A stretch of 64,000 bases of DNA from Psammoneis japonica (GCA_008632985.1 QPGO01000127.1:62001-126000); one strand, 5' to 3'. Positions 2,248 through 34,200 are shown, numbered from the stretch's first letter. Numbers and translations are program-made. Notes: generated by a model not told the origin, from the sequence alone.

Positions 2248-3292
2248 GTTGTTTGGTGTTTTGTGTGAACGGCGGCGTGATGCTTCTATTCCCATGCATG
2301 TTTTGCGCCGCGTTTTCAGTCGCGTTTGGGAGAATCTACTGTATACCACAACATCCATTCATGGATATAAATAAAAAGGTTTCCCGCCACTTCGAGTCCC
2401 TGGCTGCCACCTGGCCTGGTGTCGTAAGTTGGAACAGCTGCCGGCAGGGTTAGAGGCAGTTTTCGTCGTGCGGACAGACAGAGTTTCAGTGTACAAGAAG
2501 CACTGACGATTGTGGACAACGTGGCAAGTTTACGTTCGTAACTAGGATTGAGTTGCGGGTCTTGTGCTCACTTTTTAGCTTCTGCACCCAGTTGACATGT
2601 GGCAACGAGACAGCTGCTGGTGACATCAGTTGATGACATGTTTGCAAGCCAAGCGGCTAGAGCGAGCAGCAGCAAGCCGCGAATTTCCAACACAGAAGCC
2701 AAAAAAGTTGTGGCACAACACTCAAAGCAGTGGTGTCATTCAAGGGCTGGGGAAGTTGAGAGGAATCCACAGAACAAGAGCTGGGAAGTTGAGAGGAATC
2801 TGCAAATGAGGGCCGGGGAGTCAACAGGGGTCCCCAAAGGTGTGCCGCGTGTCGGCAGATCGCAGCAAACAAGCCGGGTGGATGAGGGCAAAGAAACAAT
2901 TTCTGGCGTGCTTTGCTGCCAAAGAAGCTGTTGAGGTTTGCTGAAAGAGGGTGCAGCAAGGTTGTGTTGGGGTTGGTGAGACAGATGGCTTTGTGCTCTG
3001 GTGTGGCGCTCTTGTCTCTTTCACTGCCTGTTCCACGCACATGAATTTTCGACAATGCACGCACGCATTGCACCATTGCTGTGGTGCCCCAACAACAGGG
3101 TAGACTTTGGTGGCATGGCAGCAAGAGTGCTCATGCACACGCCTGTGTGGGGCCTGCACTTTTTGCCAATGCATTCCTTGCTTTTCCAGCACATGTTGAG
3201 CAGATTGCTCCACAACAATTTGTGCTCAGTGCTGATTCCCTGTGTCTCTGCTTGCAACATGACCCTCACTTGTTTCTCCTTTTTTCTTTAAG

Positions 3293-3461
3293 TTGCGGAC
3301 TGGCAGTGTTGGGACAATCTAACGGATGTCTAGGACAGATGACAATCGTGCACTGGATGAGAAAGAAAGTGAGCAAAGGAGAGATCATCGGATCTCTCCA
3401 TGCTGTCCATGCCAGTCTGTCCGACACAAGGGAGTGTGCTCCCCATCTCGGATGTCTGTCA
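3293..3461 (-). repeat. 3' LTR of the Copia element
   Basis: Direct repeat of 10116-10286 (14 substitutions plus one 2-bp indel by manual alignment); begins TGACAG on the minus strand. Confidence 0.93.
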
Positions 3462-3470
3462 CCCTCCCCT
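3462..3470 (-). promoter_or_regulatory. Polypurine tract (PPT)
   Basis: AGGGGAGGG on the minus strand, immediately 5' of the 3' LTR. Confidence 0.85.
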
Positions 3471-3629
3471 GATGAGCAATGCAATGCTCAACAAGAAAGA
3501 AAGAGACGATCCAAATAAAAAGAGAGGACCAGAATGGCAAAGAACAAAACAAATGAAACAGAGACACACCCAAGACTCAATCCACAACAAACCCGACAAC
3601 AATCAACGGCAGTGTCCCATCAAGCGGCG

Positions 3630-4152
3630 GGCATGGCGGGAATGGAGCATTCAACCCACGGCCTTGGTCAGCACATCAGCAGGGTCAATGACACCCGGGA
3701 CATGTCGAGTGACAATCTTGCCCATGTCACGCCAGTCTTGGATGGCAAAATGTTGAACATCAATGTGACGAGATCGCTCCGCAGGCACCTTGTTGTTGAT
3801 CATCTGGATGGCAGAGGAGTCATCAATGTGCAAGGGAGCAGGATCACGTTGGGGAAAACCCAATTCTTCCAGAAGTTACAGCCGCGAGGAACTCAGCTTC
3901 CATGGAGCTGGTGGCGGTGATCGTTTGCGCGTGGCATCGACAGTCAATCGCAGCACCAGCAAGGACATGCGCATGGCCAGCAGCAGAACGGCGACGCCAC
4001 AGTTCATTGCCATGTGCCGCATCAATGAATCCAAGAAGTTGGAAAAGGTCAACAGCACAAGGAAAATCCAGGAGAGATGGGTCATCCTTGAACCATTCAA
4101 AATCGCGAGGAGGCAGGCCGGGATCGCGTTTGGACTTCTTGCAGGTCAGTCC
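3630..4152 (-). pseudogene. Copia RNase H region (disrupted)
   Basis: ORF 3651-3863 carries IDDSSAI...ERSRHIDVQHFAIQDW...PADVLTKAVG, the Ty1/Copia RNase H C-terminal motifs. Confidence 0.85.
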
Positions 4153-6924
4153 TCAATGTTTGGCACGGCACAAATGCTTGGCCATGCGCTTGAGTGAATC
4201 ACAATGGAGCTCAGCCGGTGCCTTGGAAAACTTGGACAAGGTGACAATGGGACATCCAATGTCCAAACGACAACAGGAATGGGCAAAGACCAATTCACCC
4301 AAGACAGAACGATGCGAGAATCCTTGGGACTCAGCAAGAGTGTTGTGCTCGGGTGCACCCTCTTCAGGACCTTCAGTGGCACACAGATCAGGAATGCAAT
4401 CAACCGGAACAGGTGCAGCCTTGAAATCAGAATCAGATTCATGTGCAGCGGGAGTGTCCCAACCATGGGTCTTGAAAACACGGTCAAGGCAGCTGGCAAC
4501 GTTGACAGTGATTGAGTCGTCATTTTGAATGACATCAATGCCATTGAATTTGGCAACCAAGCCCAAACACTTGAAGGGAGGAGTGTCCTCATTCTCCATC
4601 TGGAGAGCCCTGCCAACATGGTCGTAGATCTCTTTCGCAATCTTTTCAGATGGACAAGCAAGAGCAAAATCATCAACCTGATGAAGGAGGAGGACCTTGA
4701 CACCATCACATTCACCGGAACAGACACACTTGTCATGAGCAGTGTTGCGGAAAAGAAGTTTTGCACCCGTGAGAATCGAGTTGATGTGCTTCTCCCAGAG
4801 GACACCAGCTTCAGGATGGCCTTGAAGAGCATGCTTGAGCGGGAGAACACAATGGCGGGGTGCTTTCTTGCCAAATCGTTTTTCACACCAGGCAGCACAT
4901 GCATCATCAACAGCAACAAAAACCGGTTGGGATGGGCCAGGAGAATGAGCACAGGCATCCCGTGCATCACCGCCAAAGACACGATGCGACACAGCCGCAC
5001 TGAGAGCGAAAAACATCTTTTCGACAGAACGTTCCACACACGATGAATGGGTGGAAGTCAACTCATGCAAGGCCGGCATTGCCGACTTGGAACCATCATC
5101 ACATTGTCGGGAGCGACGTTGGCCATCCGGCTTTGCCATGTGATCCCAATGCGGACGCATGACATTCGCGCCAGGGGGACGTGGTTGCAGAGGACCACAC
5201 ATGCCCAGGGCACAAAATTGGTCCAGTTGACGCTGCTCGCCTTCTTCCCATTCAGGCCATGTGTCAAGTTTGTGAAGCTTGGCACGGGTGAGATGGTCAA
5301 GAGCAGCTTCCTCTGGAGTGAGTGAGCGAGAGCCAATCGCACCGAGATGTGCATAAAACACATCCGCAGGGACAGCCTCATTGGAAAAATCATCATCAGG
5401 ACAGAGAAGAGCCGCAACAGATCGCACATCCTCCAAAGCAAGTTCAGGAACATGAGAGTCGTCCTCCGTGGAGTCCGGCTCAAATGACTCCGCTTCCTCA
5501 AATGCCTTGTTAAGAGTGCAAGAATCCAATCGTCGTTCCGGCACAAAAGCAATCTCGAAAGTCGGAATTTTGTCATGAAAGACCTGAGATGAGGCCTCTT
5601 CAGCATACGAAGGAGTAAAGACTTCACGCTTGTTGACAGAGACAACACATGCACCCACAATCTTGTTGCGAGTGGCACGGAGGGAAGAAAACAATGAAGC
5701 GGCAGGACTGCGCTGCTTGATGTCCGACACATGGACACAGTCCATTGGCGCACACTGAGAAAATCCAAAACCACAAGTGGGGTCCTTTGGAGGACGTTTC
5801 ATGGTGCATGCAACAGTCGCAGCAAATGGATTTGACGAAGACGCAAACATGGGAACGGTGGTGTCCTGTGTTTCAGCTGGAAAAGGCTGACCATTTTCCA
5901 CACGCTGTAAATGGATGGCATTGGGAGGGAGTTGATCCAAAAACAGGTCATTCGTGCCTTCATCGCAGCGCACATGCTTGGCCGTCTTGACTTTGTCAGT
6001 CTCAGGATCCCACCACACAACATTCTTGAGGGTGTTGGGAAGGCAACCAAGGAAGACACCCTTCTTGGAATTGGTCCGGAAGGCAGCAGAATGAACAGTG
6101 GACCGTTTGGACCACACTCGACATCCAAAAGTCTTCAGAGCAGCAAAATCTTTGACCTTTCCGGCAGCAAGAGTGACAGGTGCCGCATCTTGTTCTTTTG
6201 CAGGAGTGGCATTCTTGGTGCGGAGGCAGTGGTAAAATGCATGGGGCCAGAATCGGATCGGAAGGTTGGCACCAATTAAAATCGCATGAGTCGCATTCTC
6301 AACAGTTGAATGTGAGCGTTCAACAGGCCCACATTGGTTGGATGCGCCAGCGCCAGAAGGACAGATGTCATGCTGGAATTCTTGTGCAAAGAGGTCACGA
6401 ACTTTGGGGTTTTTGTACAATTCCCCACCTTGGTCCACAAATGCATGTTCATCACGACAATTCGGTGAATGTCGATCCAAGAATCGGCGAAGCCACTTGT
6501 AAGGACTGGCCTTTGAAGCCCTCGCTGCACCATGGAGCATCCACGTGTGATGATCACAGACAGCAATCCAACATGTTTCACCATCACATCCAAGACAGTC
6601 AACCTTTGGAAGTCTGGCCAGCAAAAGCAAAATCGACAGTGAGACCTTGGTGTGGTTGGGTCGCCTTCCGAGTCGTGTTCGGTCCAGCAGGAGTCTTGAC
6701 TTGCTTGGCTTGGATGCACGCAGGGCATGCATCAAGGACGGGATTAGCATGACAGAACTTGGGGATGCCCTTGATGTGCTTGTGAGCATTGTGCAAGCAG
6801 TGATCACTGGGGTGTCCAAGGCGTTGATGCCACAGAAGACGTTCAGTCTCAACCTTGAGAGAGCGGATGGGAGCAGGGGCAGACAATGGAGCCGAGTCAC
6901 ACTGCATCGAAAACAGCTCAGCAT
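4153..6924 (-). CDS. Copia pol: GAG-pre-integrase, integrase core and reverse transcriptase (hypermutated, probably non-functional)
   Basis: LWHQRLGHP (in overlapping frame 6599-7240), VDQGGELY, QCGPVERSH, FWPHA, KTFGCRVW, KKGVFLG, LKHALQGHPEAG and HQVDDFALA (RT catalytic motif). Confidence 0.92.
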   Translation of the reverse strand: MLSCFRCSVTRLHCLPLLPSALSRLRLNVFCGINALDTPVITACTMLTSTSRASPSSVMLIPSLMHALRASKPSKSRLLLDRTRLGRRPNHTKVSLSILLLLARLPKVDCLGCDGETCWIAVCDHHTWMLHGAARASKASPYKWLRRFLDRHSPNCRDEHAFVDQGGELYKNPKVRDLFAQEFQHDICPSGAGASNQCGPVERSHSTVENATHAILIGANLPIRFWPHAFYHCLRTKNATPAKEQDAAPVTLAAGKVKDFAALKTFGCRVWSKRSTVHSAAFRTNSKKGVFLGCLPNTLKNVVWWDPETDKVKTAKHVRCDEGTNDLFLDQLPPNAIHLQRVENGQPFPAETQDTTVPMFASSSNPFAATVACTMKRPPKDPTCGFGFSQCAPMDCVHVSDIKQRSPAASLFSSLRATRNKIVGACVVSVNKREVFTPSYAEEASSQVFHDKIPTFEIAFVPERRLDSCTLNKAFEEAESFEPDSTEDDSHVPELALEDVRSVAALLCPDDDFSNEAVPADVFYAHLGAIGSRSLTPEEAALDHLTRAKLHKLDTWPEWEEGEQRQLDQFCALGMCGPLQPRPPGANVMRPHWDHMAKPDGQRRSRQCDDGSKSAMPALHELTSTHSSCVERSVEKMFFALSAAVSHRVFGGDARDACAHSPGPSQPVFVAVDDACAAWCEKRFGKKAPRHCVLPLKHALQGHPEAGVLWEKHINSILTGAKLLFRNTAHDKCVCSGECDGVKVLLLHQVDDFALACPSEKIAKEIYDHVGRALQMENEDTPPFKCLGLVAKFNGIDVIQNDDSITVNVASCLDRVFKTHGWDTPAAHESDSDFKAAPVPVDCIPDLCATEGPEEGAPEHNTLAESQGFSHRSVLGELVFAHSCCRLDIGCPIVTLSKFSKAPAELHCDSLKRMAKHLCRAKH

Positions 6925-7246
6925 CCATCAGCAAGGGATCAGATGGACCTTGTTGGACGTTGATGAAAAACACTGCACGTTGACATGCATCGTCAACATC
7001 ATCAACCAAGGATGAGTCAGGGGTCGTCGATGTCGAGGGGACACCAGACGGAGATGGAGGAATCAGGGGTTGTGTGAACACCTTGCCATGTCGAAGTGCA
7101 CCATGGACAACCACCGCTTGTGCATCAGTGGAAGCAGTGCAAGTGCAAGTGCCATCGGCACATGTCTTCTCAAGGAGCTTGGAGCGAATGGACTGAGATT
7201 TGAAACCAGAAGCCCGCGCAAAATCACGTTCATCAATCAAAGTGGA

Positions 7247-8229
7247 TCATGGACTGGGATGGTAAAAAGTGCGCATGAGAAGAAAGCCTTCAGGGTTGTC
7301 TGCAGGTGCCTGCAGGCATCCAAAGCCATGAGGAACCGCATCAGAGCCTTCAGCAGCCGGAAGCATCTTCAAAGGGCATGGGTCATCTGGTCCAAAAGGA
7401 GCACATGTGTGGAGGAGGTTCTTGTCCCCTGTGCAGGATGCCCAAGCACCAGCATCAATCTGTGCACGATGTGTCGTTGAATCACGAAGCACATGATTGA
7501 TGGGAACGACTGGGGCAGTCAAGGATGCAAAGGTCGCAGGTGACTCCGGGGGAGAAAAAATCGGGGAGATGCGCACGGCACTGAGAGGCGACAAGTGCTG
7601 GGTGTTAGTCACATCAAGACACTCAAATGGTTGGTCCTGATCAGTGGACAATGGAGTGTCAGCATCCAATGCAGGAGGATCGAATTCCCTCCCCTGATTG
7701 TGATTGCCAGGGTCATCATCAGGAATCGTCTTGGGATCAGGAGCACCAGCCTTTGTCGAGCTCGAAAGAAGGGCAGCAAATGAGACAGGTGAAAGAGGAG
7801 GATCAGCGGAAGGTGACAAGTCATTTTGACCCTCTTTCACAGTTGCCCCGCTAGCAGGAGTTTTCGGATTGGAGGACAATGGGCAGCATTGTTTGTCCGA
7901 ACATGACAATGGCCCCAGGAAAAATCCTTCTTGGCCGTGCCAGACTGAAGTGCATCACGAGCACGCTGGTCACGTTGAAGAAACTGGGAGAACCGAGTGA
8001 GATGGGTGCGCAGGTGCTCAGCATCATTCAACACAGGACACTCATGGAACAAGTGGTTGTCACCACAAACAACACATGGACGGTTCTGTGCAATGGCAGG
8101 CGAGGACTTGATCCTGCAGATGCAGGCCTTGTGGACACCGTGGAGGGCTTGTGCATCATCATCTGGAGGAACATCCACAGTGGCAAGTTCATTTACAAAG
8201 CACTCCACAGTTTCCGCAGGTTTGTCCAC
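7247..8229 (-). pseudogene. Copia gag zinc knuckle and aspartic protease region (frameshifted)
   Basis: CVVCGDNHLFHEC (CCHC knuckle) in ORF 7837-8229; AQIDAGAWASCTG (protease D-x-G-A motif) in ORF 7247-7909. Confidence 0.75.
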
Positions 8230-10115: not shown

Positions 10116-10286
10116 TTATGGACTAGCGGCATCGGGACAATCTAACGGACATCTGGGACAGATGAGACAATCGTGCACCAGATGAGAAAGAAAGTGAGCA
10201 AAGGAGAGATCATCGGATCTCTCCATGCTGTCCATGCCAGTCTGTCCGACACAAGGGAGTGCACTCCCCATCTCGGATGTCTGTCA
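10116..10286 (-). repeat. 5' LTR of the Copia element
   Basis: Direct repeat of 3293-3461, flanked by the TSD copy TCAAG. Confidence 0.93.
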
Positions 10287-13200
10287 TCAAGTGCCTGGGT
10301 GTTCCAGGCTCTTTTGCCTTCAGTGCTCTGTCATCCTTGAGAAATCATGAGGCATGTTCTCCAGCTCCAGGTGATGATGAGCTTTTCATCATGCAAGATT
10401 TTCCATGCAGTTTTCAGCACCAGACAATCTTGTCTCCACCCGGCAGAGCTCACACTTTTTGGCTTTTGGTGAGCAACAATTGTTTTCATGTTGTTGTGCA
10501 TTTGTGACAAAAGTGCATGTCTGCAACAACTAAGGTGCACATTTTGTCACAGAAAAAATGGCATCACTTGGCATTCAATGTTTTTCTGGTGATGCACAGA
10601 ACAAACAATGCTGACTTCCATGAGCTCATGTGCCGCCCCCACGTCAAAAACACCCAACACACAATGTCAGCCACAACATCAGCCACAATGCAGCACACTG
10701 CTGTCAGGTCTGGTGGGCCTTGACATGGAGCCTCACGAGGAAGAAGACAGCTGCTGCTGGGACCAACAAAACAGATTCAAGCAAGCCAGTCAATTTGTCT
10801 TCATCTCAGCCAGCAGCAAGCAGAGTGCAGCACATGTTTTGTCCCTGTTCAAGACATCAGCTGAAAAGTGAGAACTCTGGAAATTCTGGAGCAGGAGAGC
10901 TCTTCAAAAAAAGCTCTCATGGTTTCTAAAAGCTTTGGGGTCACACGCCACTCTCATGTTTGGTCAAATGATTGTTTTTGTGAGGGAGCTTGTGCCGATG
11001 GAAAATGTGACAACATGCAGCAATCGGATGACCTCAAAATCTTCAACCAATGCCACAGGCTTCCCGTTGAAGCCAACAAAAGCACACACATGGAGAGCAG
11101 CATGCAAGACACTCCATTTGCCCTTGCCTCAATGAGAAAGTTGCCACTGCAATCATCATCTTGAATGAGAAGCATCACATGGTCAACAAATGGAAGCAAA
11201 TGACAGACAGATGGACTTTGTGGCATGGACACTGCAGCACTGCACAGGTGGGGGCCAGCGGGCGGGGTGATGGAGCAAGTGGAGCAGAGTTTGAGATGAC
11301 ATTGGACTTGCACTTGTGTTTTGGGTTTTGGACCATGTCCAAGTCCCTCACTCCTTCCAATGGCATGTCCAAACTCACCAAGAAAGCTCTTCCAAGCTTT
11401 CAGCTTGAGCTCCTGGTTTTGAAGCATGGGGATCTCAGTCACCTGGCATGGAAGAGTGGATCTGTGCCTTGCAACCCTGAATGTCTTCATGTGATCAACG
11501 CCTCAGAATTTAAGAGTCCTCAGTTCAACAAAGACGAAGGTTCTGATGCTGTTGTTTCTGATGCCTTGCTGCCCATTGACTGGAGGAACCCCGTTTATGA
11601 TGAGGATGACAACAGGTTCAATCTCAAGAACAAAGTTCACTTGCCACTTTCACGGGCGCTCAAACAGAATTGCAACATGACTTTCTTGCATGATTGCAAC
11701 AGCTGCATTGTGGCCGGTGCTCAGGACACCATGGTGGTTTCTGCAAGTGAGCTGGAAACTCAAGTTGTTTTTAAAGAGAAGAGCAAAAGCCTCACTCAGC
11801 ATTTGTTGGGTTCAGTTGGCACAACCTTTCCCCAAATTTGCAAGTCTGGCCAAGAAGCATTCATTGAAGGAAGACCCATGAAAACCAACACAGCTGGATT
11901 CTCTTGTCCTCTCATTCTTGCCCAGCTTCTGGAATGCATGGCAGCTGAAGCTGCTGCATGCAGTGTCATTGTCACTTCTGGATGAGCTTGCTTTGTTTGG
12001 GTTGAAGTGGGGCAGGAGCAAAATGGTTGCAAAGAGACACCAGCAAAGAAGCAAAAAGGCACAAAGAAAAAGGTTCCTGCATTGGCAGTTTCAAGTGAAG
12101 CAACAATGACAAGTGGCGCGCACTTGACCAAATCCATCAAAATTGATGACGCTCACTTTCTACATGTCATGCACAACTTCACATTTCAGACCAAGGAGGG
12201 TTGCATGATGGACAAAGGATTGACAGCCACCAAACTGCTGAATGCCCCCTCTTCAAATGGAGGGTTTACCCGAGGTGAATCACAAGACAACAAACCTCAA
12301 ACAAGAAACCAGCTGACATCAGTCAGGTGCCTGATTTGTTCAAGCAGTGGTGTTGCAACTTCTTTGCCAGGTGCGAGGTGATCTGTGATCTCCAGGTTTC
12401 CGCTTGTTCCTTGTTTGTGCAAGACAAGAGTTGTTGCCAAAACCTTGGGTCAAAACAGGGAAGGTCAAGTGCCGGCTGCAAATTGGAGCAGTGTTTCAGC
12501 TGCGGCAAAGGTTGTCAGCCTCTGGAACAATGTGCGTGAACAAATGCATGCACGATGTGTTTTTGAAGGTGAAGTCAAAGCCTCTGCAAATTGGCTGGAC
12601 TGGCTGGTCTGTGGGGCTTGGCTGTCCCACAACCCACAACCTTTCTTTGCAGCAACGGATGACAAGCAGTGCATCCCTTGTGTCCAGCTTTGGGTGACCC
12701 AATGCCACTGGATCCCAAGATGTGGACCACTTCTGAGCTGAGACAGGTGACTGAGAGTGCTCTTCTTCTTTTTGAAGCTGGCGCTGAGTTGAGTGACATC
12801 AAACCTGCCAACTTCATTTGCATCACCAAATGCAATGTTGTCAATGCATCACAGTGCACTGAAGAACAAAGGGTTGTTGCAGTTGAACTCAAGCAGCTTT
12901 TCATGGAGGCAGAATCTGACTGTTTGAAGCTCCCAGAATGGATGTTTGAGAAAGCAAAAGCAAATGCTGTGTCTCCTGGACAATGGACTGCTCAACCAGG
13001 ATGTGTGCTCCCTTCCACACACCAATCAGTTGTCAAGAGAAAGGAACAACTGAGCTGCAATGACCTCTGCACACAAGCCTTGTGCAGGTGCAGCTTCAAC
13101 AGCCACATCTTCTTTGTCTTCACTCATTGCAATGAGTCCACTTGCAGACGGGTTTGCAGCTGTTCTTGTGCATGGATCTCGATTGTCATTTGCCATTTCC

Positions 13201-15902: not shown

Positions 15903-16412
15903 TAGAGAGCCGTTCATCCGGTCGAATTGTATGGCTCTTGCAAGCCGTGGTAGAACTTAGATTCCTGCAGTTGTGACATTCACGCTCGCATAGGCAGTTT
16001 GACATAAACATAGAATTTTGTGACTTAGTATATTTCATCGGGCTAGAGAACGTACGAGCTGAGATGTCAAAACCGAAGTGAGATACCTACTCGTTAGCAC
16101 CGCTTCAAGCATTTTCATTTATTGATACCGGTTCCAACGCCGCACGCTTCTCTTCTTTATTAGTGTACTCTATGATGTGGAGCTGATTGAATGAGAGACG
16201 ATGTTCCTCAAGGATAAGATGACGGAGCCATTCTTGGCGGGAACGAGAAACCGCGGATATCCGCGATCAAGACAACAAGACAGAAGACAGCACAAGAGCG
16301 CACGAGCAATACGATGCACGAGAAAAAGTCCCACACAACCTACTCACTCATCCGATAAACTCACTTTCTCCGCCACAATTTGTCTGGAGCAAAACATAAA
16401 AAGAGCGAAACC

Positions 16413-18523: not shown

Positions 18524-18960
18524 GCTTCTGAGCCTCAGTTTTTCAGACTATATCAAACAACAGGTGAGGAGCGTACCACAACACCCACTTCCTTCGTCGT
18601 TCCAACGCAACGCAGCAACAACAAAAATGGCCAACGCAAAATATCTTCTTGGGGTGTCATGTGTCACTCGGATGATTTGACTGTTTCTACAGAAAGATAA
18701 TACTGAAAGTCACATACGTAGATCCTGGTACTGAATCTATTAAAATTTCGAAAAATGTAGCAAGCCCATAACCAGATTACGTTTTAAGGCATATATATCT
18801 GTATAACATATAAAAATTTGGCAGAACTTGCAACGCGCTTCAAGTTGACAAACGTTTGCTCCTTCATCGTTCTTCTCACAACACGACATAACATTCGTTG
18901 TCATACATCGACCATACCTTTCCTCTTTTCTTTCATGCAGTGAGAAAACGACATCCTACC

Positions 18961-20405: not shown

Positions 20406-20529
20406 AAAAGCGAGATTCGTCGCTTGGGGCTAACTACTAACTACTAATCGATGCATTGACAAGGCTTCGAACGCTCCACGTGTTCTCAAACTAGCATCCA
20501 TGTTATTTCTTTCAATCGAATCATGTTAT

Positions 20530-23340: not shown

Positions 23341-23468
23341 TGTGAAATATCTGCTCGGGGACTAGTTTGTTAATAAAGTTTTAAGCTGTTTTTACATGAA
23401 ACACTGTTGCTCTTATTCCTTTGAATCACACAACGCGAGATCGAGATTACTACAGCTTAAATCTCTAG

Positions 23469-24973
23469 TGTGAAAGCCTCACAAACTGAATCGCCTCTTG
23501 GTGAAGAGACATGTCATATCTCGTTTACGGGATAATGATTTGGTACATCTGCCAGGCATTCGTACAACAAAGAAGTTGATGTCACTTCAGTTATCTCGCA
23601 TGGAATTCACCAACTGTTCGAGCTCATTCAAACTCTGCCAAGTCTTTTAGATCCATCACTCTCTGCGCAGCGACATCAAAATCCAGCTTCGCGATTCGCG
23701 CGACGATAAGTGAAATGCAGATGACGACATTGGGGGGGTTCGCATGGGCCTATACTTTGGAGCGAAGTGAAAGATGATGTGGACCCAATCGCCGCGCGCG
23801 CACACATTGGGGGGACACGTCAGACACCAATGTGAAAGCCGTAGCCTCACAAACGGAATCGCCTCTTGGTGAAGAGACATGTCATATCTCGTTTACGGTG
23901 ACAGGACAATGATTTGGTACATCTGCCAGGCATTCGTGCAACAGAGAAGCTTGATGTCACTTCAGTTGTCTCGCATGGAATTCACCAACTGTTCGAGCTC
24001 ATTCAAACTCTGCCAATCTGTCAGATCCATCAATCTCTCTGCGCAGCGACATCAAAGTCCAGCTTCGTGATTCGCGCGATGACAAGTGAAATCAGATGAC
24101 AACATCAGGGGGGTTCGCACAGGCCCATGCTTTGGAGCGAAGTGAAGGATGATGTGGACCCAATCGCCGTGCGCGCACACATTGGGGGGGCATGTCAGCA
24201 GTGTGAGAGCCTCACAAACTGAGTCGCCTCTTGGTGAAGAGACATGTCATGTCTCGTTCATGGTGACAGGACAATGATTTGGCACATCTGCCAGGCATTT
24301 GCACAACAGAGAAGCTTGATGTCACTTCAGTTGTCTCACATGGAATTCACCAACTGTCCGAGCTCATTCAAACTCTGCCAATGACGGGCTCCAGCATTCC
24401 CAGGTGGGACTCCGTGTGACATTGGGCCCACAGAATTCCACGTGCAAGCTCCGCAGTGAATTTGTGCTGCAATGAAAACACAAATGATTGCCAACAGAAA
24501 AAGAGACAATTTTGCGAATGCATCTCCTCCTCCACGCTTGCAGCACATCATTGATGGTTTGCCCGGGTGTGTTCTTCAGACATCAAAGAATGCACCCAGC
24601 GCATTTTCATTCTCACAAATGTTGAAAATAGAAAGCCTTTGGCTTCACAAAACAGGGAGCATGAAACAATTTTGTAGAGTGCGACACACAGAAATGCACG
24701 TGCGCGACATGCGACACGATCCAAAAAACTGTTGATGTCACAGTGCAGCAATGCGAGGTCCCACCTGGAGCTGGAGCACGTCCAATCTTTTAGATCCATG
24801 ACTCTCTGCACAGTGACATCAAAACCCAGCTTCGCGATTCATGAGACGACAAGTGAAATCAGATGACAACATTGGAGGGGGGTCGCATCGGCCTGCACTT
24901 TGGAGCGAAGTGAAAGATGATGTGGACCCAATCGCCGCATGCTCACACATTGGGAGGGGACACGTCAGACACC
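23469..24973 (+). repeat. Three tandem copies of a ~365-bp unit; the third is interrupted by a MITE
   Basis: Copies start TGTGA(A/G)AGCC at 23469, 23831 and 24202; copy 3 resumes at 24783 after a 400-bp insertion. Confidence 0.92.
24383..24782. mobile_element. 400-bp MITE, copy 2 (4-bp TSD CAAT)
   Basis: TIRs GACGGGCTCCAGCATTCCCAGGTGGGAC / GTCCCACCTGGAGCTGGAGCACGTC; CAAT at 24379-24382 and 24783-24786. The empty site (CTCTGCCAATCT) is visible in tandem copy 2. Confidence 0.92.
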
Positions 24974-27900
24974 CAGCAACTTGTCAAGCCCCCGCCCACT
25001 GCCACATGCGCACCACCTTGCCCATGCTGCATGTGTTCCCAGCATGTGCAAATGCATCTTCAATCAGATTCAAAAACACAGCTCATGATGAGTGGGATGG
25101 GATGTGTCCCACGCATGAGTTTTGGGCATGTCCCTCCAGCCACCTGCTGCAGCTGGTGCTGGTGGGTGTCCAGGCTGTCACATCTTGTGGGGGGATGAAC
25201 TTTTGTTTTTAGGCTGGCAGCACCACGTCTGGAACCCCGCTCCCAACAAGAGCACAGCAAGTTGCAAGAGAGATTTCTCAAATTGCGCAGCTGATTTTTG
25301 CGTGCATTCATGAAATTGCACTCCTGCAACATTTAAACTGAACATGTTTCAACTTGCGTGTGGCCAATCTTTTTTGCATTTTAACATCACAAGCTGACCA
25401 GCCAAGACCCACCTGCCCTGTTTGAAGAATTCTTCCCATTGCGCGCTGCTTCATCAAACAAACAACTTGATGTCAACAACACAAGCTGGCAGCTTGGAAG
25501 AGTTTGAAACCATTCCAGAAGAGCGAGAGCCACACAGCTTCTTGTGTGAAGCCCAAAACATGACACAGGCAGCAACTGGAGAGAGGCTCCCACCTCACAC
25601 TTTTTTGTTCCACCCCAAGTGCTCTCCAGGTGGGGCACATTGACGCGCCATCAGAGCTGGGCATTTTTGAACAAAGACAGGCATGGCACAAAATTTGCTT
25701 GACATTTTTGCACAACAAAAATCATGTTAGAGAAACACTGTTGTGTGGCACAGTTGACACAAGGAGAAAATTGCTCACACACTGGAATTTGCCGCAGTGA
25801 GTTTTTTGGCCATGCTGAAGAGCATGTGAGTGGACCTTGGCCTTTGAGCATGGTGGCATCCAGCCAACAATTGCACTGCAAAGCTTCCGTTTTTTTGTTG
25901 TTTCAAATGTGCAGCTGCTGCTTGTTCTGGGAAACAATTGCCCCAACTTGTCAAAAAAGAGTGCAGCCCAGCTGCAAAGCAAGCGACGCTTGTCATCCAG
26001 CAGCTTGGCTTTTGTGCCAACAGCCTCAGCAGAAGTTGGCCAAAAAAAATGCAGACAAGTTTGGCAGAAATTGGTGGGAAAACAAAAAAATGCAGACAGC
26101 TGTGACACAAGATGAAGCACTGGGCATTTGCAAGGCAATGACTTGTTTGCAAGAGCAGCAGATCTTGCTTTCCTGGTGCTCTGGGTGAGACCTTGTGGTG
26201 CTGGGCCGTGGCAGAACTTTTTTCACATGCTGCACAAAAGCCACGCACATTCCTGCATGCATGAGCACTCTTTTGAAATGTTGTTCTACACACACAGCAT
26301 TTTGCAAAACCAACAAAATTTTGTTTTTCAATGATTTCCAACAGCAGAATCAGGCTGATCACTGACTTCAATGTTCAGTGTCTGAAGAAAGCAACTGAAA
26401 CACCAGAAATGACACAATCCAGGCATGAGCACTTGAAGTCAGCTGCAAAATTGCACCCTTTTTTGTTGGGAGTTGCTGGCCCACTCCTTGCCCAGTGGGC
26501 TCTGAGCAATGTGGAAAACTGCAGATTTCTGCATGTGAGCTCTGCACTCTGCAGTTCATGCACCAGGTGATGAGTGCATTTGTTTTTGACATCTGAGCAA
26601 ATGACCAAGCTTGCGGTGCATTGTTTGTGCCTCTCAACACTCAAAGAAGTTTTTGGAAGTCTGCCTGCATTGTGCAGCTCTGCTGTCAAAGGTTGTCGAG
26701 TTGATTGCCCAATGACTGTGCTCATTTTTATGAGCTCCAATTTGCAGAGAAGTTCACTGTGAGATCTGCTGCATTTTCACATGGTTTGTGCCAATTGCTT
26801 CACAGGGTGACATCATTTGACATCCCCGCCAAACTGTTTTTCTTTGGACACAACACATTTTTGCTGGACAGAGAGAACTGTGGGCACATTTTGCACAGCA
26901 CACAACTTGCAGATTGTTGTGTGCAGGGGTGCAGAGACAACCTTTTGGCAAGTTCCACTGCAGCTGCGCATGATGCAGCCAAGCTGACAGGCAGTGCACC
27001 TCGCTGGTTGATCAGGGGCAGTTGTGCTGCAAAACAATGCAAAATGTCATCAAAGTCATGTGGTGTGCAGAAGTGCATGTGCGCGACACATGGTGCATGA
27101 CAAAAAAGTCAAAGTCAGAGTCAGAGTCAGCGGTGTGAGGTTCCACCCAGAGCTGGAGTGCACTGCCCAGCAACTCTTCTGCAGAGCTTGCACACAGAAC
27201 TTTGTGGTCCTGACATCACAGGGGATGCCTCGGCCCACTTGCATGTTGACAACACAGACTGCACTTGCCAGTGTGGGTCCAATGTGGCACAGCTGTCGTG
27301 AGGTCGCATTGTGGGACCAAAAGAGATGCTGCACAAATTGACCAACAATGAAAAAACATTGACGATGCCTGCAACATGTTCCTGTGCTCAACAACAAGAA
27401 AATCAATGAACAGCAGCCACAATTTTTGCGTTTGTGGTTGCAATTTCCACAGACACCCCATTTGCTCAAACTTTGACCATGCTTCTTTCTGTTGTGCTTG
27501 CTCATTTAAAAGTCACACATCTGGCATTTTTCTGAAAGTTGTTGGTGTTCACAGATTGCAGCTGTGGCTGCATTGAATGTGCAACGTCTCATTGTGTGAA
27601 GTTTCATCTTGTCAAGAGTGCACTCATTTGGTTGGAAGACCTTCCATTTGATTGCCCATTGTCTGCATTTCAGGGTGTTTCTTCTGCACTTGTCTTTCTT
27701 TGCTTTGTTGGACACCACACAACTTCTTGTCTGCCAGCCCATTGTTCCAGCAACAATGGTGTGCCTTTGCTGCAACCTGGTTGCATGTCTCACAACAACA
27801 ACAAGTGTGCTCTCCAGATGTGTGCTCATCTTCCTTCTGGCTTGGCCTCAAGATCTCCCAGCCATTCCCTTGACTTGGTGGGCTCTGATGGGCTCACATC

Positions 27901-30900
27901 TGTCTCCACTCCAGACCTTTGTTTGACGTCAGCATCTCTGGCAATGACTTTTCTTCTGTTTGCTCATCTTCATTTTTGACTGTGCATGACAATCAGCCAC
28001 AGTTTCTTGTTCAGCAAAAGCTGGTTTTTCTTTCCCTGATGCCTCTGCCAGCATTGCACTTGGGTGGCCAACACCTCCAAGAATCCACCAAGTCAGTCAT
28101 TGGCAGCTCTGCCAGTTGGCAAACAAAAACAAACCATTTGCAGCCATTCCCCTGAGACCAGCCCCACCTGCGTGCACCCAAAACCTGTGAAGTGCAGCAA
28201 GGAAATTGCACTTTCATTGAATGACAAAATGGCTGAACTCATTCAAAGCAACAAGCTCAATGGGATCTGTTCTGTCCTCTGTTGCTGGCTGCCTCCTTTG
28301 TCTCAACACCTGTCTGCCATCAGCTCTGTTGGCATGGACAAATCCACATTGAATGTGGCAGCAGAGGAGCTTCTGGAATTGACACACAGACTGAGAGTGC
28401 CGTGGCCAGAGATGGCAAAAGCCCAAGTCTTCACAAGGAATGAAGAGGCCAAAAACTTTCAGGAAACATCAAGGTCATTTCAGCAAGTGAGCCCATTGTC
28501 CACATGCCAAGGAACACAGAGATGAAAAGATTTGGATCTACAAAGCTCATCCAAAGCATGTGGACAAAGTTGGTGATGGCTGCATGACTCTCACCCTGCT
28601 TGCCAGCTGGCATGTGAGTGTGTGGCACAAACAAGTGGCAGCAGTGACAGGAAGGAATGGCGCAAGACCCACACAGTGGTGTGCTGCAAAAAGAAAACCT
28701 TCTTCATGATTTTGTGTGCTGCAGAGTTTTGCTCCTCTTGTGACAAAACAATGTTGGCCGGCAGGTCCTTGCGCAAATCTGCAGTGGTGTGCTGACCTGT
28801 CAAAGAGAGGATGACAGCAAAAGGTTGGAAAGCAGTGTGCACCCAGAATGGAAAAGACAAATTGCTTTCAACAGCAGATTTTGAGCCACCAAGTGGAAGC
28901 TTGGGCTCAGCAGATTTTTGACTGTGTGTGCCAAAAGATTGGCTTTGGAGCCTGGGCTCCATGGCTGATTGCTCCATCAAAGCTGATCCCCAGCACCTCA
29001 GCAGCCACATCTGGCTCTGGCCAGTGTTCTTCAATTCCACACATTCCATGTCATGGCACACACTGAAATCTGTCAATGTGACTGTGTTTTGTGTGGAAGA
29101 CGCAACTGACATGATGCATTTCTCCACAAGTTGCCACGGTGGTGTGTGGTTGTTTTTGGCCACTTCTTTTGACTTTGCAGTTGCAGAAGCAGCAGCACCA
29201 AACAACAATGTGAAGCAGATGCCGTGTGTGTTGTAAAAGAGATGGTGAGCTGTGGTTTCTTTCTTGCCAAAACAGACTTGTTCTGTTCGCAGGATTTTGC
29301 AGCTCTGTCGTGGATCACAAACAGTTTGTGCATGGGGTCACTGAAACAGCTCTGTCTGGCACAGAAACAACCACATGGACCAATTTGGATGTGGTGGATT
29401 CAATGAGAACATTTTTGTGCTGAATGAATTTAGAGTGGTTGAAATGGCTGAGAAGAGGGCACACAGTGACTTTCTTTCAAGTTGATGGTTGCTGAAGTCA
29501 CAACAAGGCTGTGGTTGTTGCACTCAACAAAAAAGAGAAATGACACCTGCAGACTGATCAAAATGTGGCAGTCATGATGGTGTCATTTTTGTTGTCTTGA
29601 GCAGGTGGAACTGCTGTGCATGGTCACCGCCATTGTTTTGTTGGGGCGCGTGCTTCTCTGTGCTGCACTGTCATGTCTGGGCAAAGGAACCCCAAGGGGT
29701 GCTTCAAGCTGGTGGCGAAATCCATTGTGGCACAGAAGCAGAAAGATTCTGAAGTGTTTGGGTTTTGGATTTCCCATGTTTCCATCAATTTGTCAGCCCC
29801 AAAAAACAATCTTTTAGACCCATTTTCCCCTCCAAGAGTGCAGCAGCATTTGGAGAATGCGCCATCAAGGGTGGCAACAAACAAGTCATTGCCAGCCATT
29901 GGCAGAAGCACATGATCCATTTGGGCTTGAAGGTGAGCCACAAAAGTGCTCCATTCTTGGCCTGTGACAGAGACAAGGCACCGAGGCCACCCTTCTCCCA
30001 AAACCTTTCACCAATGGAAGGTGTGACAAGTGCTCTTGTTGGTGAGTGCAAGACCCACCGCAAGAAGCCATGCTCACAAAGGGAGAGTCAGGTGTTGCGC
30101 CAACATCAAGGAGTGATTGGAAATTCATGGCACACCCCCAGCCTTTTGTTTCAAGAGAAAGCCAGCATCTAAAAGAGCATCTTGCTCAACCTTTGATTTC
30201 TCCACTTTGTCAAAAAAACCTTTGATGTTTTCCAGAGCAATCAGCTCACCAGCATGGAGGGTTTGCCTCTGGGCTTTCTGGTGCAAGCTGTCATGACAGC
30301 AATGTCAGCAAGCCTTTCCTTGAGGGTGCTGTGCTTGAACTTGCAAAACAGACAAACCCTCCTCACCTTGCTTTTGAAAGGCAGCATGCACACCCTCCAA
30401 GAAAAGGCACGCCAGTGGAGCAGCACAGGTTTGTCCAATTTGTTGCACAGTGTGTGATGCTGGGTGGCCCCAGTGAGATCCCTGTTCTTGAGCAGCGGAG
30501 CTTCACCCAGCTTGTCAAAAAAGACAAAAATTTCCCACACAGAGGGCAAGACATCATTTGCACTGGCTTGAGCATTGGCTTGGTTTGCAGGAGGTGCTGC
30601 AGCTGCAGCAGTGCAAGGACCATGACTTCAAGGGCTTGCCCTCATGCCTTGCAAAGGAAGTTGGCCTCTTCCTCTGCCACCTCAATGGCCACCCCCACAA
30701 CCTCCACATGGCCACTGTCAAGACCACCACAACCTCTTCTTCCAGCAGCCTGGTGCTGGCAAGTGTTTGGCATGATGACAGCCCAGCAGCAACACAGAGG
30801 TTGTTGTGTGTGTGTGCAAGTGTCATGGCAAAGATTGCTTGCTGCACTCAGAAGTCCCACAAAACTGCAAAAAACACTGTGCACATGAGCACAAATGCAA

Positions 30901-33900
30901 AAATTTTAATCTTGGCAAGAGCAGATTGTTGTTGCAAAGAATGAGGTGTCAACATTCTGCAGACGCAAATGCGCTGCATCTGATTAAACAGTGCTCCACC
31001 CACAGCCACAAACCACATGACAGTTCACAAAAAAATGCCCAACAACATGGGCAGCAGAATGACTCTCATTTGTGTCATTTGAAATTTTTGAAATCATTGC
31101 AAACATGTGTGATTGTAGAAATAAAAAAGAACAGCCACTTGCACAATGAAACATGCAATGATTGCCAGGCTTGCTGGCTCAGCATTGGGCCAAAGCACAC
31201 ATCATTGCCACCACCACACAATGGCATTGCAGGAAGGCACAAACAAAGCCAAGGATTGTGCACACCCTGACAAAAAAAGCCATGAGAAAAGCAAGAGGCC
31301 AGAAGTGTGACATGCAAGCAGGCAGCACTCAGATCATGCAAATGACTGACAATTTTGCCCATGCTTCAAACTCGCATGTGAATTGATGCAAGTGTCAACT
31401 TGCGTTGAACATTGTGCTGCAACATTGCACACAGATGAGCAGAAGCGCATTGTTGTGAAACCATTGGAACATTCAAAACTCACAACATCTCTGCTTTTTC
31501 TGGCAGAGGTGTTTTGCTGTGGCCTTCCTTGCACAATGAATGGTGTGCACACAGCCAATGTAAAGAGAACCAGCAAGATCAATGTGGGGGGTGGACATTC
31601 TCAGAAATGAGCCACATTGGCAATTTGTTGCACATGTGCAGTTGTCAAGATAAAAATCTGACAAGTCACATGCACTGCTCATCATTGTTGTTTCCCACTT
31701 TGCCAATTTGCTTGGTTGTCAGTGCAACAACATTCATGACAATCACACCACAAATGTGCACAAAAATTGCACGCTGCAAGACCAGATTTCAGGTTTTTTG
31801 TCAAGCACAGGTCAACAACTCTGAGCAAGAGCAACAACATTTTCCAGACAGACTGTGAGACAAAGACAAGGCACAGCACTTGCAGCAATGGCCTGTGGTT
31901 CATGCCCCCTGGTTTGCAAAGCTGAAGGCTTTCTGCACTCTTCATTTGTGGCTGCAAAATGGGCCCAGGCAAACCAGAAAGGACCTGCTTTAAGTGCAAT
32001 GAGGACACACATTTGCAAAATTGACTCTTTTTCTGTTGTTGAGCATTCATGTGTCAATTGCTTGGTTTGCTGTGGAGCTTGCACATGTGGAATTCCATGG
32101 GCCCATGTGTCACATGGATTTCTGCCAAGAGAGCCAGAATGTTTCTGGCGCTTCTCAAGGGCCTTCTGCTGCATGGTGATGACAGTCAATGCAGCCAAAG
32201 ATCTGCTCTGATTGTCAAAATGTGCAACTTGCTGATGATGGCTCCATTGGTCAATGGATGACATGAGTTCTCAAAAGAGGCATGTTTGTTGGGTGTGACA
32301 GCAGCTTGCAGGGCTGCAATGCTCCATTGGATCTGGTGGTGCTTGGCTTTTGTTGACATTGTGCCAACATGCTTTGTTTGTCCTTCTTGTTGCAGAGCCT
32401 GTTGCGCTGGCTGTGCAAACAAAATGGCATGGGATGTGCTGCCACTGGCTTGGAGAAGATGTCATCATGTGCTCTCACATTCACAAAGTTGAGTTCCCTG
32501 AGAGGACATTGCTGTTGCTGCTTTGGAAAGAAAAGGGGGTGCTCCTGCTGAACTCCCACACATGGCTGATGCGTGCACTTCAGCTCCTCAGCAAGGGGCT
32601 GTTTGCTGTCGCTGGCCTGCCACACAGCTCAGCCATGACAAGGGTGCCTCGAGCCAATTTGATGCGTTGCCACAACAAGATTGGACTTTTCTGTGTGCTT
32701 TCACACCATCACTGCTTTCAGAGCTCAGAGGGAGAGTGTGCTTTCTTTCAAACAGAGGATCCCCTCCTTGTGCACCCAAGAGCATCGCAGCCACTGTGAG
32801 ACATGTTTTTCTCTTCGCCAGCGGTGCTGATTTCTTTGCATTCTCCTCTTGCTCCATTTGGCACAAGCAACATGTTGACTCTCATTTTGCTCTGGGTTTT
32901 TGTTGCTCTTCTTCTTCAGAATCTCCAAAACACAAGTGCTGTCATTGGAAAGCGAGTTTTGTCAGTGCAGGCAAAACATTCCCACAAAGGATGTTCCCAA
33001 GATGTGGGTCGCTCATCCAGGCTCACATTGTCACACAAGCATGGGCCCTTGTCAATGTCATCTGCTGACCTGCCATCAGGGTGTTGCTGTGCTGATGATC
33101 ATGCAAAACTGCAGCTGGCAGGAGTGTCTGTTGTTGGGAGTGTTGCGTGCATGGACCAAAGACAACATGACACCCTGGTCATCATGAAAGCACAGACTTC
33201 AGCTTTTCACATGAACAAAGGGGGAAGACATGTTTTGCTGCAAAAAGTCAGCTCAGTTGTGAGTGCACTTGCTTTGTCCTGTTGCAAGAAGCTGTGCCAA
33301 CTGCAGGAAGCATGTGGGCTGGGCTCTTGTTTCGCGCTGCAGAGCTCCAGGTGACACATGTGGAGCCCTCCCAGGCCTGGGACTGGAATGCATTTGAAGA
33401 AGAGAGGCATTGTCATCTGCCCATGATGCTCCTTCAACTTGTTTGGCACACCAGCATGACTGTGTTGCACACAGCTTGGAGCCTCAGCATGAATTGTGAG
33501 AAGTTCTGGCTCTGGCTCAAATGTCGTTGCAAACAAGGGGTTTTTGGGGGGGGCGAGCCCCGCCACACACCAAGTCTCAAGTGCCTGGCACCTTTGCTCA
33601 CACCAGCTGCAGCAACAGAGAGGGGCAACAGACACAGCTGAGAAGAAGCTGGGTGGGAATGAAGACGTGCAAGGCAGGCATTTGCCTCTCTGTCCAAGTC
33701 AGCAGCACATCGTCTGCCGCAAACAAAATGCGTGCAGCGCCGCACCTCTCTTCTTTGCTGCTGCTGCTTGATCAGCTTGTTGGCACATCTCACACACTTG
33801 TCAGTTTGTTGCATTGGTGTGGTCATTTTGATGTGTGCTCTGAAGTTAAAGTCACTGTCTCTGGCTCGCTTCCGTCCGTTGGCTTTTTTGGCTGCCAGAG

Positions 33901-34200
33901 TGTTTGTTGAAAAAGAGAGCCGGGGGGAGTGCAAAAGCACTCCTCTCTCACCACTGCAAGACACAACAAGGGGGGTGTCAAACATCTTCCCAAAAACATC
34001 TTCACTTCCTCAAGCAAAAGTCTTTCAACCTGTGTCTGTTTTCTTACCTTCACAATCCAGACTGCTGGCTTTGGCTTGTGGTGTGGCGCCTGCGCGATTG
34101 GTGAATGCGCGAGACAGCTGGAAGGTGTCGAGATGCAACGGGCGCGCGCGCGCGGGGCCGAGCGATGAATTTTCGAAGAATTTCTGCGGCGGATCAAAGC
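24974..34200. mobile_element. Long, heavily degenerate unclassified repeat tract depleted of both TpA and CpG
   Basis: About two dozen TA dinucleotides in ~9 kb by eye, few CG, and an excess of TG/CA. Only short Cys/His-rich spurious ORFs. Confidence 0.6.

Follow-up and report, generated by a model that had tools for sequence, protein, structure and literature searches.

How could a single dinucleotide, TA, be nearly erased from blocks of transposon-derived DNA when the host genes lying between these blocks keep it at normal levels? This question is raised by a 64,000-nucleotide stretch of the genome of the diatom Psammoneis japonica (GCA_008632985.1 QPGO01000127.1:62001-126000), which forms the whole of our diatom evidence base and is referred to below as the window, with positions counted from its first letter. 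We consider it probable, at roughly 80%, that blocks of transposon-derived diatom DNA underwent hypermutation of A:T to G:C at 5'-TA-3', acting on DNA after integration of the elements; an A struck on the top strand would leave TG, and an A struck on the bottom strand CA.

TA depletion and its block edges in the window

Depletion was scored as the ratio of observed to expected TA (o/e), both in 500-bp windows and by tract. In tracts 1 to 5, TA o/e amounted to 0.07 (1-905), 0.05 (2580-14060), 0.07 (20530-21760), 0.04 (24200-34200) and 0.21 (57100-62100), as against 0.60, 0.60, 0.47, 0.60 and 0.65 in the five intervening host stretches. The 500-bp windows gave 0.00-0.18 over 2501-14000, 20501-21500 and 24001-34000, 0.08 in 1-1000 and 0.10-0.37 across 57001-62000, compared with 0.27-1.09 in host DNA. 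With expected counts computed at the host ratio and significance taken from the Poisson distribution, 38 TA sites remain where 418 were expected in 2620-14060 (P = 3e-127), 24 where 407 were expected in 23919-34200 (P = 2e-138), 43 instead of 124 in 57100-62100 (P = 3e-17) and 3 instead of 25.8 in 1-905. TA depletion is confirmed as real, large and far beyond chance, and the near-absence of TA from transposon-derived tracts with normal levels between them, which an earlier reading made from the sequence only had described, was reproduced (o/e 0.04-0.21 versus 0.47-0.65).

The depletion is accompanied by a rise of TG and CA to 1.5-1.9 times expectation, in near-equal numbers (TG/CA 1092/1279, 131/136 and 1145/1169). 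CpG is depleted in the same tracts, but more weakly and more variably than TA (o/e 0.58, 0.45, 0.41, 0.23 and 0.75 in tracts 1 to 5; 0.87-0.98 in host DNA), so that the TG and CA excess is fed by both TA and CG. AA shows no depletion, its o/e being 1.11-1.24 in tracts 1-4 and 1.10-1.19 in host DNA, and the GC content of the TA-poor tracts equals or exceeds that of host DNA. Arranged by stage, TA and CpG o/e run from 0.21 and 0.75 in tract 5, through 0.06 and 0.58 in the Copia element of tract 2, to 0.03-0.04 and 0.20-0.21 in old remnants; TA loss saturates long before CpG loss across this series.

The block edges are sharp to about 70-160 bp, as seen from the successive TA sites that flank them (2576 and 2658, 14027 and 14100, 20527 and 20689, 21739 and 21762). 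The right edge of tract 4 lies between TA sites at ~34045 and 34223, roughly 150 bp ahead of an importin-like open reading frame (ORF) at 34359, and the last dense TA ahead of this tract is at 23918. The boundaries drawn in the sequence-only reading held broadly, except for the start of tract 4, which is not at 24200 but at ~23919, within the B copy of a 365-bp tandem repeat. The features of the window are as follows (LTR, long terminal repeat; MITE, miniature inverted-repeat transposable element).

1..905, strand not applicable: TA-depleted tract 1, unclassified repeat remnant extending past the window start; TA o/e 0.07, CG o/e 0.58
2620..3296, strand not applicable: older TA-free remnant left of the Copia element; TA o/e 0.08, CG o/e 0.38; left edge between TA sites 2576 and 2658
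3297..3461, minus strand: 3' LTR of the Copia-type element; aligns with 10120-10286, 153/165 identical
3612..7840, minus strand: Copia-type gag-pol, hypermutated; from Pfam and tblastn of 5 homologues; frame breaks near 3860 and 6600
10120..10286, minus strand: 5' LTR of the Copia-type element, from the alignment with 3297-3461
10287..14060, strand not applicable: older TA-free, CpG-poor remnant right of the Copia element; TA o/e 0.03, CG o/e 0.20; right edge between TA sites 14027 and 14100
14100..20527, strand not applicable: host control (Duc1-domain gene and others), TA normal
20560..21745, strand not applicable: TA-depleted tract 3, TA o/e 0.08; holds the MITE copy 21023-21419
23467..23918, plus strand: spared tandem repeat, made up of copy A and the opening ~85 bp of copy B; 13 TA, o/e 0.43, CG o/e 1.07; from TRF and alignment
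23919..24382, plus strand: mutated tandem repeat, the remainder of copy B plus copy C's left half; 0 TA
24383..24782, plus strand: MITE inserted in tandem copy C; DNA-type, terminal inverted repeats, CAAT on either side
24783..34200, strand not applicable: TA-depleted tract 4; TA o/e 0.04, CG o/e 0.21
57100..62100, plus strand: tract 5, non-LTR retroelement (Pfam RVT_1); TA o/e 0.21, CG o/e 0.75
1000-2576, 21762-23918, 34223-57086 and 62138-64000, strand not applicable: other host controls; TA o/e 0.47-0.65 and CG o/e 0.87-0.98 over all host stretches

Post-integration mutation of both strands and its sequence context

The element at 3297-10286 on the minus strand matches Pfam PF13976, PF25597 and PF07727, with gag_pre-integrase, integrase SH3-like and RVT_2 domains between flanking LTRs of 165 bp, and is 50-52% identical to full-length homologues; its domain order and LTR pair mark it as a Ty1/Copia LTR retrotransposon. 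Its ORF was aligned with 30 of the 120 homologues listed, and columns with Tyr in at least 80% of them were taken as conserved. At these 19 columns the window ORF carries 1 Tyr, 8 His, 8 Cys, 1 Met and 1 Phe, and in the same alignment other residues were kept (Glu at 18/18, Trp at 11/12 and Gly at 31/37 columns); at a looser threshold of 50%, 2 of the 32 Tyr columns still hold Tyr, 13 having turned to Cys and 10 to His, and 7 carry other residues. The codon changes TAY to CAY and TAY to TGY (Y, pyrimidine), which turn Tyr into His and Cys, are the two outcomes of TA to CA and TA to TG. With 0.6% Tyr, 4.8% Cys and 4.7% His, the ORF stands apart from the 120 listed homologues, in which Tyr has a median of 3.5% and a minimum of 1.0%. 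Ile was replaced by Val at 8/19 columns, which fits T|ATH junctions, and Arg by His (3) or Cys (2), which fits CpG decay. For the reverse transcriptase ORF of tract 5, where columns were defined by Tyr in at least 60% of 20 homologues (20 of the 150 listed), the six Tyr columns show 2 Tyr kept, 3 Cys and 1 His, with Arg kept at 18/20 columns; tract 5 is an earlier stage of the same hypermutation.

The timing of the changes can be read from the LTR pair. The two LTRs of one element are identical at integration. In the window they differ at 12/165 positions; all mismatches are transitions and all lie inside pyrimidine-purine (YpR) dinucleotides (75 YR positions), and none is found at the 90 positions outside YpR. 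The mismatch types comprise 4 between TG and CA, 2 between TA and TG, 1 between CA and CG and 1 between CG and TG. Since the LTRs started out identical and now differ only at YpR, mutation took place on chromosomal DNA after insertion. Moreover, the loss of about 90% of TA in the Copia element (o/e 0.06 versus about 0.6-0.7 in relatives), taken together with 0/90 mismatches outside YpR, sets the rate at least roughly 70-fold above background, by arithmetic from the 95% bound of 3.3% pairwise divergence.

The tandem repeat serves as an internal control: 13 TA survive in copy A together with the first ~85 bp of copy B, and 0 in the remaining part of B with the left half of C. TA of copy A appears as TG or CA in B and C, and the outcomes differ between B and C at equal sites; the site CCTATACT of copy A, for instance, reads CCCATGCT in copy B and CCTGCACT in copy C. 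The mutated block extends about 460 bp past the MITE insertion into these satellite copies. The MITE copies themselves (24383-24782 and 21023-21419) are 79% identical and show 12 dinucleotide swaps between TG and CA, hence one ancestral YpR site was struck independently in each copy. The sequence-only reading had counted a target duplication outside an element among the affected DNA; the MITE target duplications that could be read (CAAT, GCCA) contain no TA. Paired copies thus place TA opposite TG or CA, as the sequence-only reading had it, and additionally TG opposite CA. As a separate observation, loose-end consensus strings of other MITE copies retain TA where the window copies carry TG or CG.

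The process is post-integration, strikes both strands about equally and affects retroelements, the DNA-type MITE and the adjoining satellite; it is far faster than background and than CpG decay, and it stops at sharp block edges. The proposal that LTR, non-LTR, MITE and tandem DNA are all affected therefore stands, with the Copia element, tract 5, the MITE with its terminal inverted repeats and satellite copies B and C as the respective cases. So does that of a process on chromosomal DNA hitting TpA on either strand, in view of the YpR-only LTR mismatches, the 8 His to 8 Cys at Tyr columns and the targets that are not retroelements.

Metagenome contigs scanned with the Copia alignment yielded 79 loci (L030 and L033 being near-duplicates), with whole-locus TA o/e of 0.01-0.83 and values below 0.5 in 12/79. 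A family of 47 loci was defined by at least 76% identity over at least 1500 bp to L007; all come from microbial-mat assemblies, and the family is unrelated to the Copia element of the window. To score the copies, a majority consensus was built from the 33 whose TA o/e was at least 0.55; it called 4740 columns and excluded 1702 lacking a 60% majority. In the most strongly affected copy, L051, none of the 149 consensus TA sites was kept, 78 having become TG and 58 CA (136/149) and 13 something else, whereas CpG was kept at 113/164 sites (69%); TA loss is therefore separable from CpG decay. TA became CG at only 3/149 sites, so one hit destroys the target. Other copies form a graded series of TA kept (L076 7/98, L072 29/109, L065 19/81, L030 53/174, L060 55/123 and L045 96/137), as compared with about 80-95% in normal copies, and reversals from TG or CA to TA were few (0-17 per copy). 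In L033 and L072, TA is normal in the flank and drops in a step at the element, which is TA-poor.

Context rules were derived from nine partly mutated copies, with L033 left out as a duplicate, sites with a changed flanking base dropped and events assigned to the strand that reads A to G. The fraction of TA kept was 0.21 in ATAT, 0.27 in GTAC, 0.28 in ATAC, 0.37 in GTAA, 0.49 in ATAG, 0.50 in CTAG, 0.53 in ATAA, 0.55 in CTAC, 0.56 in TTAA (n = 9) and 0.69 in CTAA. The A-to-G rate depended on the base at +1 (C 127/362, T 114/357, A 27/198, G 48/359) and was nearly independent of the base at -2 (0.22-0.31). Hence, 5'-TAY is preferred, or equivalently RTA for T (R, purine). The fully mutated L051 offers a cross-check, with 26 TG and 16 CA at YTAY and 2 TG and 9 CA at RTAR. 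Sense and antisense rates were 166/468 (0.36) versus 75/251 (0.30) at TAY (p = 0.14) and 18/170 versus 57/387 at TAR (p = 0.23), so there is no strand bias after control for context. The 71 surviving TA of the window follow the same context order, with TTAA (4.9x), CTAA/TTAG (2.7x) and CTAG (2.1x) over-represented and ATAT (0), ATAC (0.09x) and GTAC (0.2x) depleted.

A second Copia family from microbial mats, comprising L013 and L049 (94% mutually identical, about 69% identical to the main family), is partly TA-depleted (o/e 0.40 and 0.32). Among the Copia and non-LTR database homologues, a few are poor in Tyr and rich in Cys and His (P0212, P0295, P0367 and P0388, with Tyr 0-1.0%, Cys 3.4-4.1% and His 3.4-5.9%) and are probably hypermutated copies in other assemblies.

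Known systems, targeting and rival explanations

The sequence-only reading had known of no description of such a pattern, and in this it has been overtaken by a 2026 preprint on the chlorarachniophyte Bigelowiella natans, whose main text reports the same TpA-only hypermutation in integrated viral DNA (Mettrop et al., bioRxiv 10.64898/2026.01.13.699255, April 2026). According to that text, 231/302 nuclear point mutations in 15 mutation-accumulation lines fell in two viral regions, an integrated giant virus (a nucleocytoplasmic large DNA virus, NCLDV) and a virophage, 230/231 of these viral-region mutations were A to G or T to C, all those GC-biased ones on TpA, and they arose at about 6e-7 per site per generation; coding sequences poor in TpA were enriched for reverse transcriptase and DDE domains, and an ADAT2-like deaminase was proposed (10.64898/2026.01.13.699255). 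Both systems, as far as the preprint describes its own, turn A/T into G/C at TpA only, give TpG or CpA depending on the strand, are limited to foreign-derived regions and leave TpA depletion with CpA/TpG enrichment as a long-term footprint. Every sequence-level feature of the B. natans process is present in our data, including confinement to mobile DNA, to which the five tracts against five host stretches and the steps at L033 and L072 correspond. The differences lie in the host (a diatom, hence a stramenopile, as opposed to a rhizarian), in the type of evidence (a footprint here, a measured de novo rate there), in extent (o/e 0.03-0.08 here, near-saturated, versus a Rho of 0.45 given for an NCLDV insertion) and in the targets (LTR, non-LTR, MITE and satellite DNA versus giant-virus and virophage insertions); CpG co-depletion, the TAY preference and block edges are described here and are absent from the preprint's main text. 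Our search of the full-text literature, which did not extend to papers behind a subscription, brought up no description of diatom transposons losing TpA.

Among other known systems, fungal repeat-induced point mutation (RIP) resembles the present process in that it introduces heritable, dinucleotide-specific transitions into DNA, inactivates mobile sequences and can leak into flanks. However, RIP turns C into T mostly at CpA, creates TpA, lowers GC and makes stop codons, whereas here A:T becomes G:C, TA is erased, no stops arise and the GC of the tracts is at least that of the host, so that RIP does not give this pattern, in agreement with the sequence-only reading. RIP is also triggered by duplication. 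In the window, tandem copy A, 85 bp of copy B and an inverted-repeat unit at 40379-42366 were spared, the rest of B and C was struck, and tract 4 is mostly near single-copy. Given the spared tandem part, the spared unit (TA o/e 0.75) and the low copy number of tract 4, for most of which a public sequencing run gives near single-copy k-mer depth, we infer that targeting would follow a silenced chromatin domain and not sequence homology. On the same grounds, the term repeat-restricted used earlier is justified only in part: transposon-derived blocks are indeed affected, but restriction to repeats is not shown, and the blocks behave as domains.

Deamination of 5-methylcytosine (5mC) likewise feeds TG and CA and has left its mark on these blocks as well (CpG o/e 0.20-0.58), but it cannot remove TA, and the 0/149 TA against 113/164 CpG kept in L051 bears out the earlier view that it does not explain TA loss. 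Diatom transposons are described as methylated through DNMT5a in the account of Hoguin et al. (2023, PMC9998398), and the co-extensive CpG depletion would fit 5mC-marked transposons of this kind. ADAR hyper-editing and APOBEC3 resemble the present case as deaminase-driven, clustered transitions in mobile or viral sequence; they differ in acting on RNA or on single-stranded cDNA before integration, with a one-strand signature, whereas both strands are affected here, after integration and also outside retroelements.

As to the chemistry, a TadA/ADAT-like or other deaminase may have converted adenine to inosine in the DNA of the blocks. TadA, ADAT2-3 and the TadA-derived base editors, which offer a functional analogy, convert A to I where U or T precedes the A; the deaminases of tRNA A34 as a rule edit an A with T ahead of it, and the target loop of bacterial TadA reads U-A-C-G, resembling the TAY preference. 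The natural TadA and ADAT enzymes act on tRNA; their activity on DNA is engineered or else, according to the B. natans preprint, reported for a few ADAT2 proteins (10.64898/2026.01.13.699255). We favour enzymatic adenine deamination, by a candidate enzyme, and put it at a little short of an even chance.

Several points weigh against the hypermutation hypothesis as we frame it. The link of TA loss to repeats and chromatin is read from one 64-kb window, and the responsible enzyme is a candidate. Adenine deamination and thymine modification leave the same double-strand signature and are indistinguishable from sequence. The TAY outcome bias was not reproduced at the Tyr codons of the window, where Cys:His stands at 7:5 if a purine precedes and at 6:5 if a pyrimidine does (n = 23, underpowered; Fisher p = 1.0). 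L051 is changed at 10.2% of its non-TA/CG sites, compared with 3.3-4.5% in normal copies; among these changes A>G (60) and T>C (72) are in excess, which could reflect weaker off-target activity, lineage-specific TA sites outside the consensus or greater age. The host of the metagenome family was not identified, as the 617-aa ORF flanking L072 gave no Pfam family and one relative in the search, and the L033 flank contains a protein-kinase fragment; a diatom host is likely, because Nitzschia and Cylindrotheca are among the named sources of relatives of this Copia lineage. Finally, the sequencing run that confirms the window may derive from the assembly's own sample, and its platform is not on record.

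The alternative closest in signature is a thymine lesion, in which a heterochromatin-directed modifier (e.g., a TET/JBP-type dioxygenase producing 5-hydroxymethyluracil, 5hmU, or 5-formyluracil) would act at 5'-RTA and cause T-to-C changes by mispairing with G. As TA is its own reverse complement, the resulting signature would be identical, with TAY for A to G equal to RTA for T to C; moreover, 5-formyluracil can pair wrongly with G, and in dinoflagellates TpA is a site of 5hmU enrichment. None of our results supports a thymine modifier in diatoms, and the sole published proposal for the signature, in the B. natans preprint, is an ADAT2-like adenine deaminase (10.64898/2026.01.13.699255), hence we regard the thymine lesion as unlikely. 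Error-prone repair by a polymerase like Pol eta, recruited to methylated or heterochromatic DNA, had been named earlier as a candidate and turned out to be a poor fit. The CpG-depleted blocks do suggest methylation and repair traffic. Pol eta makes A-to-G errors at WA motifs (W, A or T), TA included, but AA is not depleted (1.11-1.24 in tracts 1-4 versus 1.10-1.19 in host DNA), the near-complete loss is confined to TA, and the decisive flank is the base 3' of A, with Y preferred and no W/S effect (S, C or G) at -1 beyond T; we therefore hold this explanation to be very improbable. GC-biased gene conversion was set aside since AA, TT and AT are not depleted, and UV photoproducts at TA since there is no reason for their block-limited action; to our knowledge, N6-methyladenine has no route to TA-specific transitions.

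RNA-level A-to-I editing of retroelement transcripts by ADAR- or ADAT-like enzymes, later fixed by reverse transcription, would account for the T ahead of the edited A, as ADARs favour U at this position and known A-to-I RNA editors typically act next to a 5' U/T, following the preprint's description (10.64898/2026.01.13.699255). It would not account for equal mutation of both strands (8 His to 8 Cys; antisense 0.30 versus sense 0.36 at TAY), for LTRs that diverged after integration, for struck MITE and satellite copies, for a block reaching about 460 bp beyond an insertion or for the disfavoured 3' G, and we give it hardly any weight; the earlier dismissal of ADAR editing, from strand symmetry, LTR divergence and non-retroelement targets, is upheld. 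Codon usage or selection might instead have kept these families poor in TA from the start, and the MITE copies could stem from an already TA-poor master copy. Conserved Tyr replaced by His or Cys, Tyr of at least 1.0% (median 3.5%) in all 120 listed Copia homologues, LTR differences at YR sites only, spared and struck tandem copies that differ at TA sites and the graded series within one family leave native composition with a negligible probability.

A sequencing or consensus artefact over modified DNA could be suspected, since the platforms of both the window assembly and the confirming run are not on record. In one public run, 81% of sampled 31-mers of 19500-29000 were present, and its k-mer contigs cover 30/30 bins of 19500-35500 at a word depth of about 50, including contigs with 0 differences inside TA-free DNA (24909-25982, 1074 bp; 20626-21052; 21361-21733); two further public runs gave little or no coverage of the stretch. 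The exact-k-mer depth points to accurate reads. Besides these exact contigs carrying the TA-free sequence, the same signature occurs in separate metagenome assemblies of another element family, identical contexts yield different outcomes in sister tandem copies, and the B. natans signature was, by the preprint's account, measured with Illumina NovaSeq reads (10.64898/2026.01.13.699255). An artefact is in our view barely credible.

Returning to hypermutation at TA, we tentatively suggest, while giving it somewhat less than even odds, that diatoms, chlorarachniophytes and perhaps other lineages of the stramenopile-alveolate-rhizarian (SAR) group share a chromatin-directed enzyme that edits DNA at 5'-TAY as a heritable genome defence. 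Such an enzyme, whether a DNA adenine deaminase occurring in nature or a modifier of thymine, would be an A:T-directed counterpart of fungal RIP and might permanently disable transposons and integrated viruses by missense saturation with reading frames left open. The window adds a second, phylogenetically distant lineage to a process first reported only months earlier, so that what had been a curiosity of one species is now likely to be a widespread genome-defence process of marine algae. To the B. natans account the diatom data contribute near-saturation on every transposon class, domain edges, CpG independence, strand symmetry and the TAY rule. The search for the enzyme is made concrete, as any candidate must reproduce the 5'-TAY flank preference. 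A natural DNA adenine deaminase, if it exists, would be new biology of interest for base editing, and because some diatoms are transformable, the question is testable.

Consequences for the elements and further features of the window

In the TA-poor DNA, TAA and TAG together occur at 4.4 per kb, counted on both strands, compared with 34 per kb in host DNA, and TGA at 48 versus 37. No premature stops were created; TAA and TAG vanish. With Tyr codons turning into Cys or His and Ile into Val at T|ATH junctions, the elements would be crippled by missense change and their frames would stay open; TA-rich signals may also have been erased. Long overlapping open frames run on both strands and in several frames over 2620-14060 and 23919-34200 (e.g., 4146-5057, 4153-6927 and 4516-5046). 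Owing to the near-absence of TAA and TAG, gene finders will call long false ORFs in TA-free DNA, and divergence-based dating of such elements will be badly biased.

The Copia element is nested within older unclassified remnants that are much poorer in CpG (o/e 0.38 and 0.20). Between the start of its gag match and the 5' LTR lie ~2.3 kb (7841-10119) with an open 451-aa frame (8671-10026, minus strand) that matches no Pfam family; this segment may be either an extra ORF of the element lineage or an older insertion. In tract 5, the RVT_1 frame is open over 1253 aa (58700-62461), and homologues located by tblastn span 58760-62407. Tract 4 consists of the right half of tandem copy C (24783-24973) followed by ~9 kb that are degenerate, could be assigned to no class and have the lowest CpG. 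Pfam searches gave no match for the ORF at 155-907 in tract 1 or for the remnant 10287-14060, and no credible family for the 16 ORFs of tract 4 and several ORFs of tracts 1 and 2, with one weak DUF7445 match under the cut-off; when the Copia and non-LTR homologues were used in tblastn, tract 1, the right remnant of tract 2 and tract 4 yielded no additional remnants.

The MITE family is ~400 bp long, with terminal inverted repeats of 13-23 nt (21023-21045 with 21397-21419, and 24383-24395 with 24770-24782) and apparent 4-bp target duplications, GCCA and CAAT. Summed k-mer depths of 22,637-36,009 in tract 3 and 53,445 at 24383-24782, against about 50-60 for single-copy DNA, correspond to hundreds of MITE copies. 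An inverted partial copy lies near 31964-32118.

By Pfam, the host genes between the blocks encode an importin-11-like protein, a histone deacetylase, a 5'-nucleotidase, an HSF-type factor, a Duc1-domain protein and an O-acetylhomoserine sulfhydrylase. The best named relatives of the last (62618-63634) are all diatoms, at 68-78% identity (Synedra-like, Odontella, Grammatophora, Cyclotella, Thalassiosira and Nitzschia), and its top matches reach 83%; the window thus belongs to the nuclear genome of a diatom and neither to a fungus nor to Bigelowiella. The spared unit at 40379-42366, ~2 kb long, lies between 100-nt inverted repeats that are 94% complementary and holds 110 TA (TA o/e 0.75, CpG 0.87) and a 181-aa ORF (41674-42219, minus strand) that belongs to no Pfam family; it may be either a mobile element escaping hypermutation or an inverted host duplication.

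In the public run that covers the window, the exact contigs on transposon tracts (20626-21052, 21361-21733 and 24909-25982) have a word depth of 25.7-32, compared with ~52 on the host stretch 19500-20383, and at some places in 22361-22833, within the HSF-type gene, the sole contig differs from the window. The half depth on the transposon tracts, together with this differing contig, suggests two diverged haplotypes, with the insertions possibly on one only.

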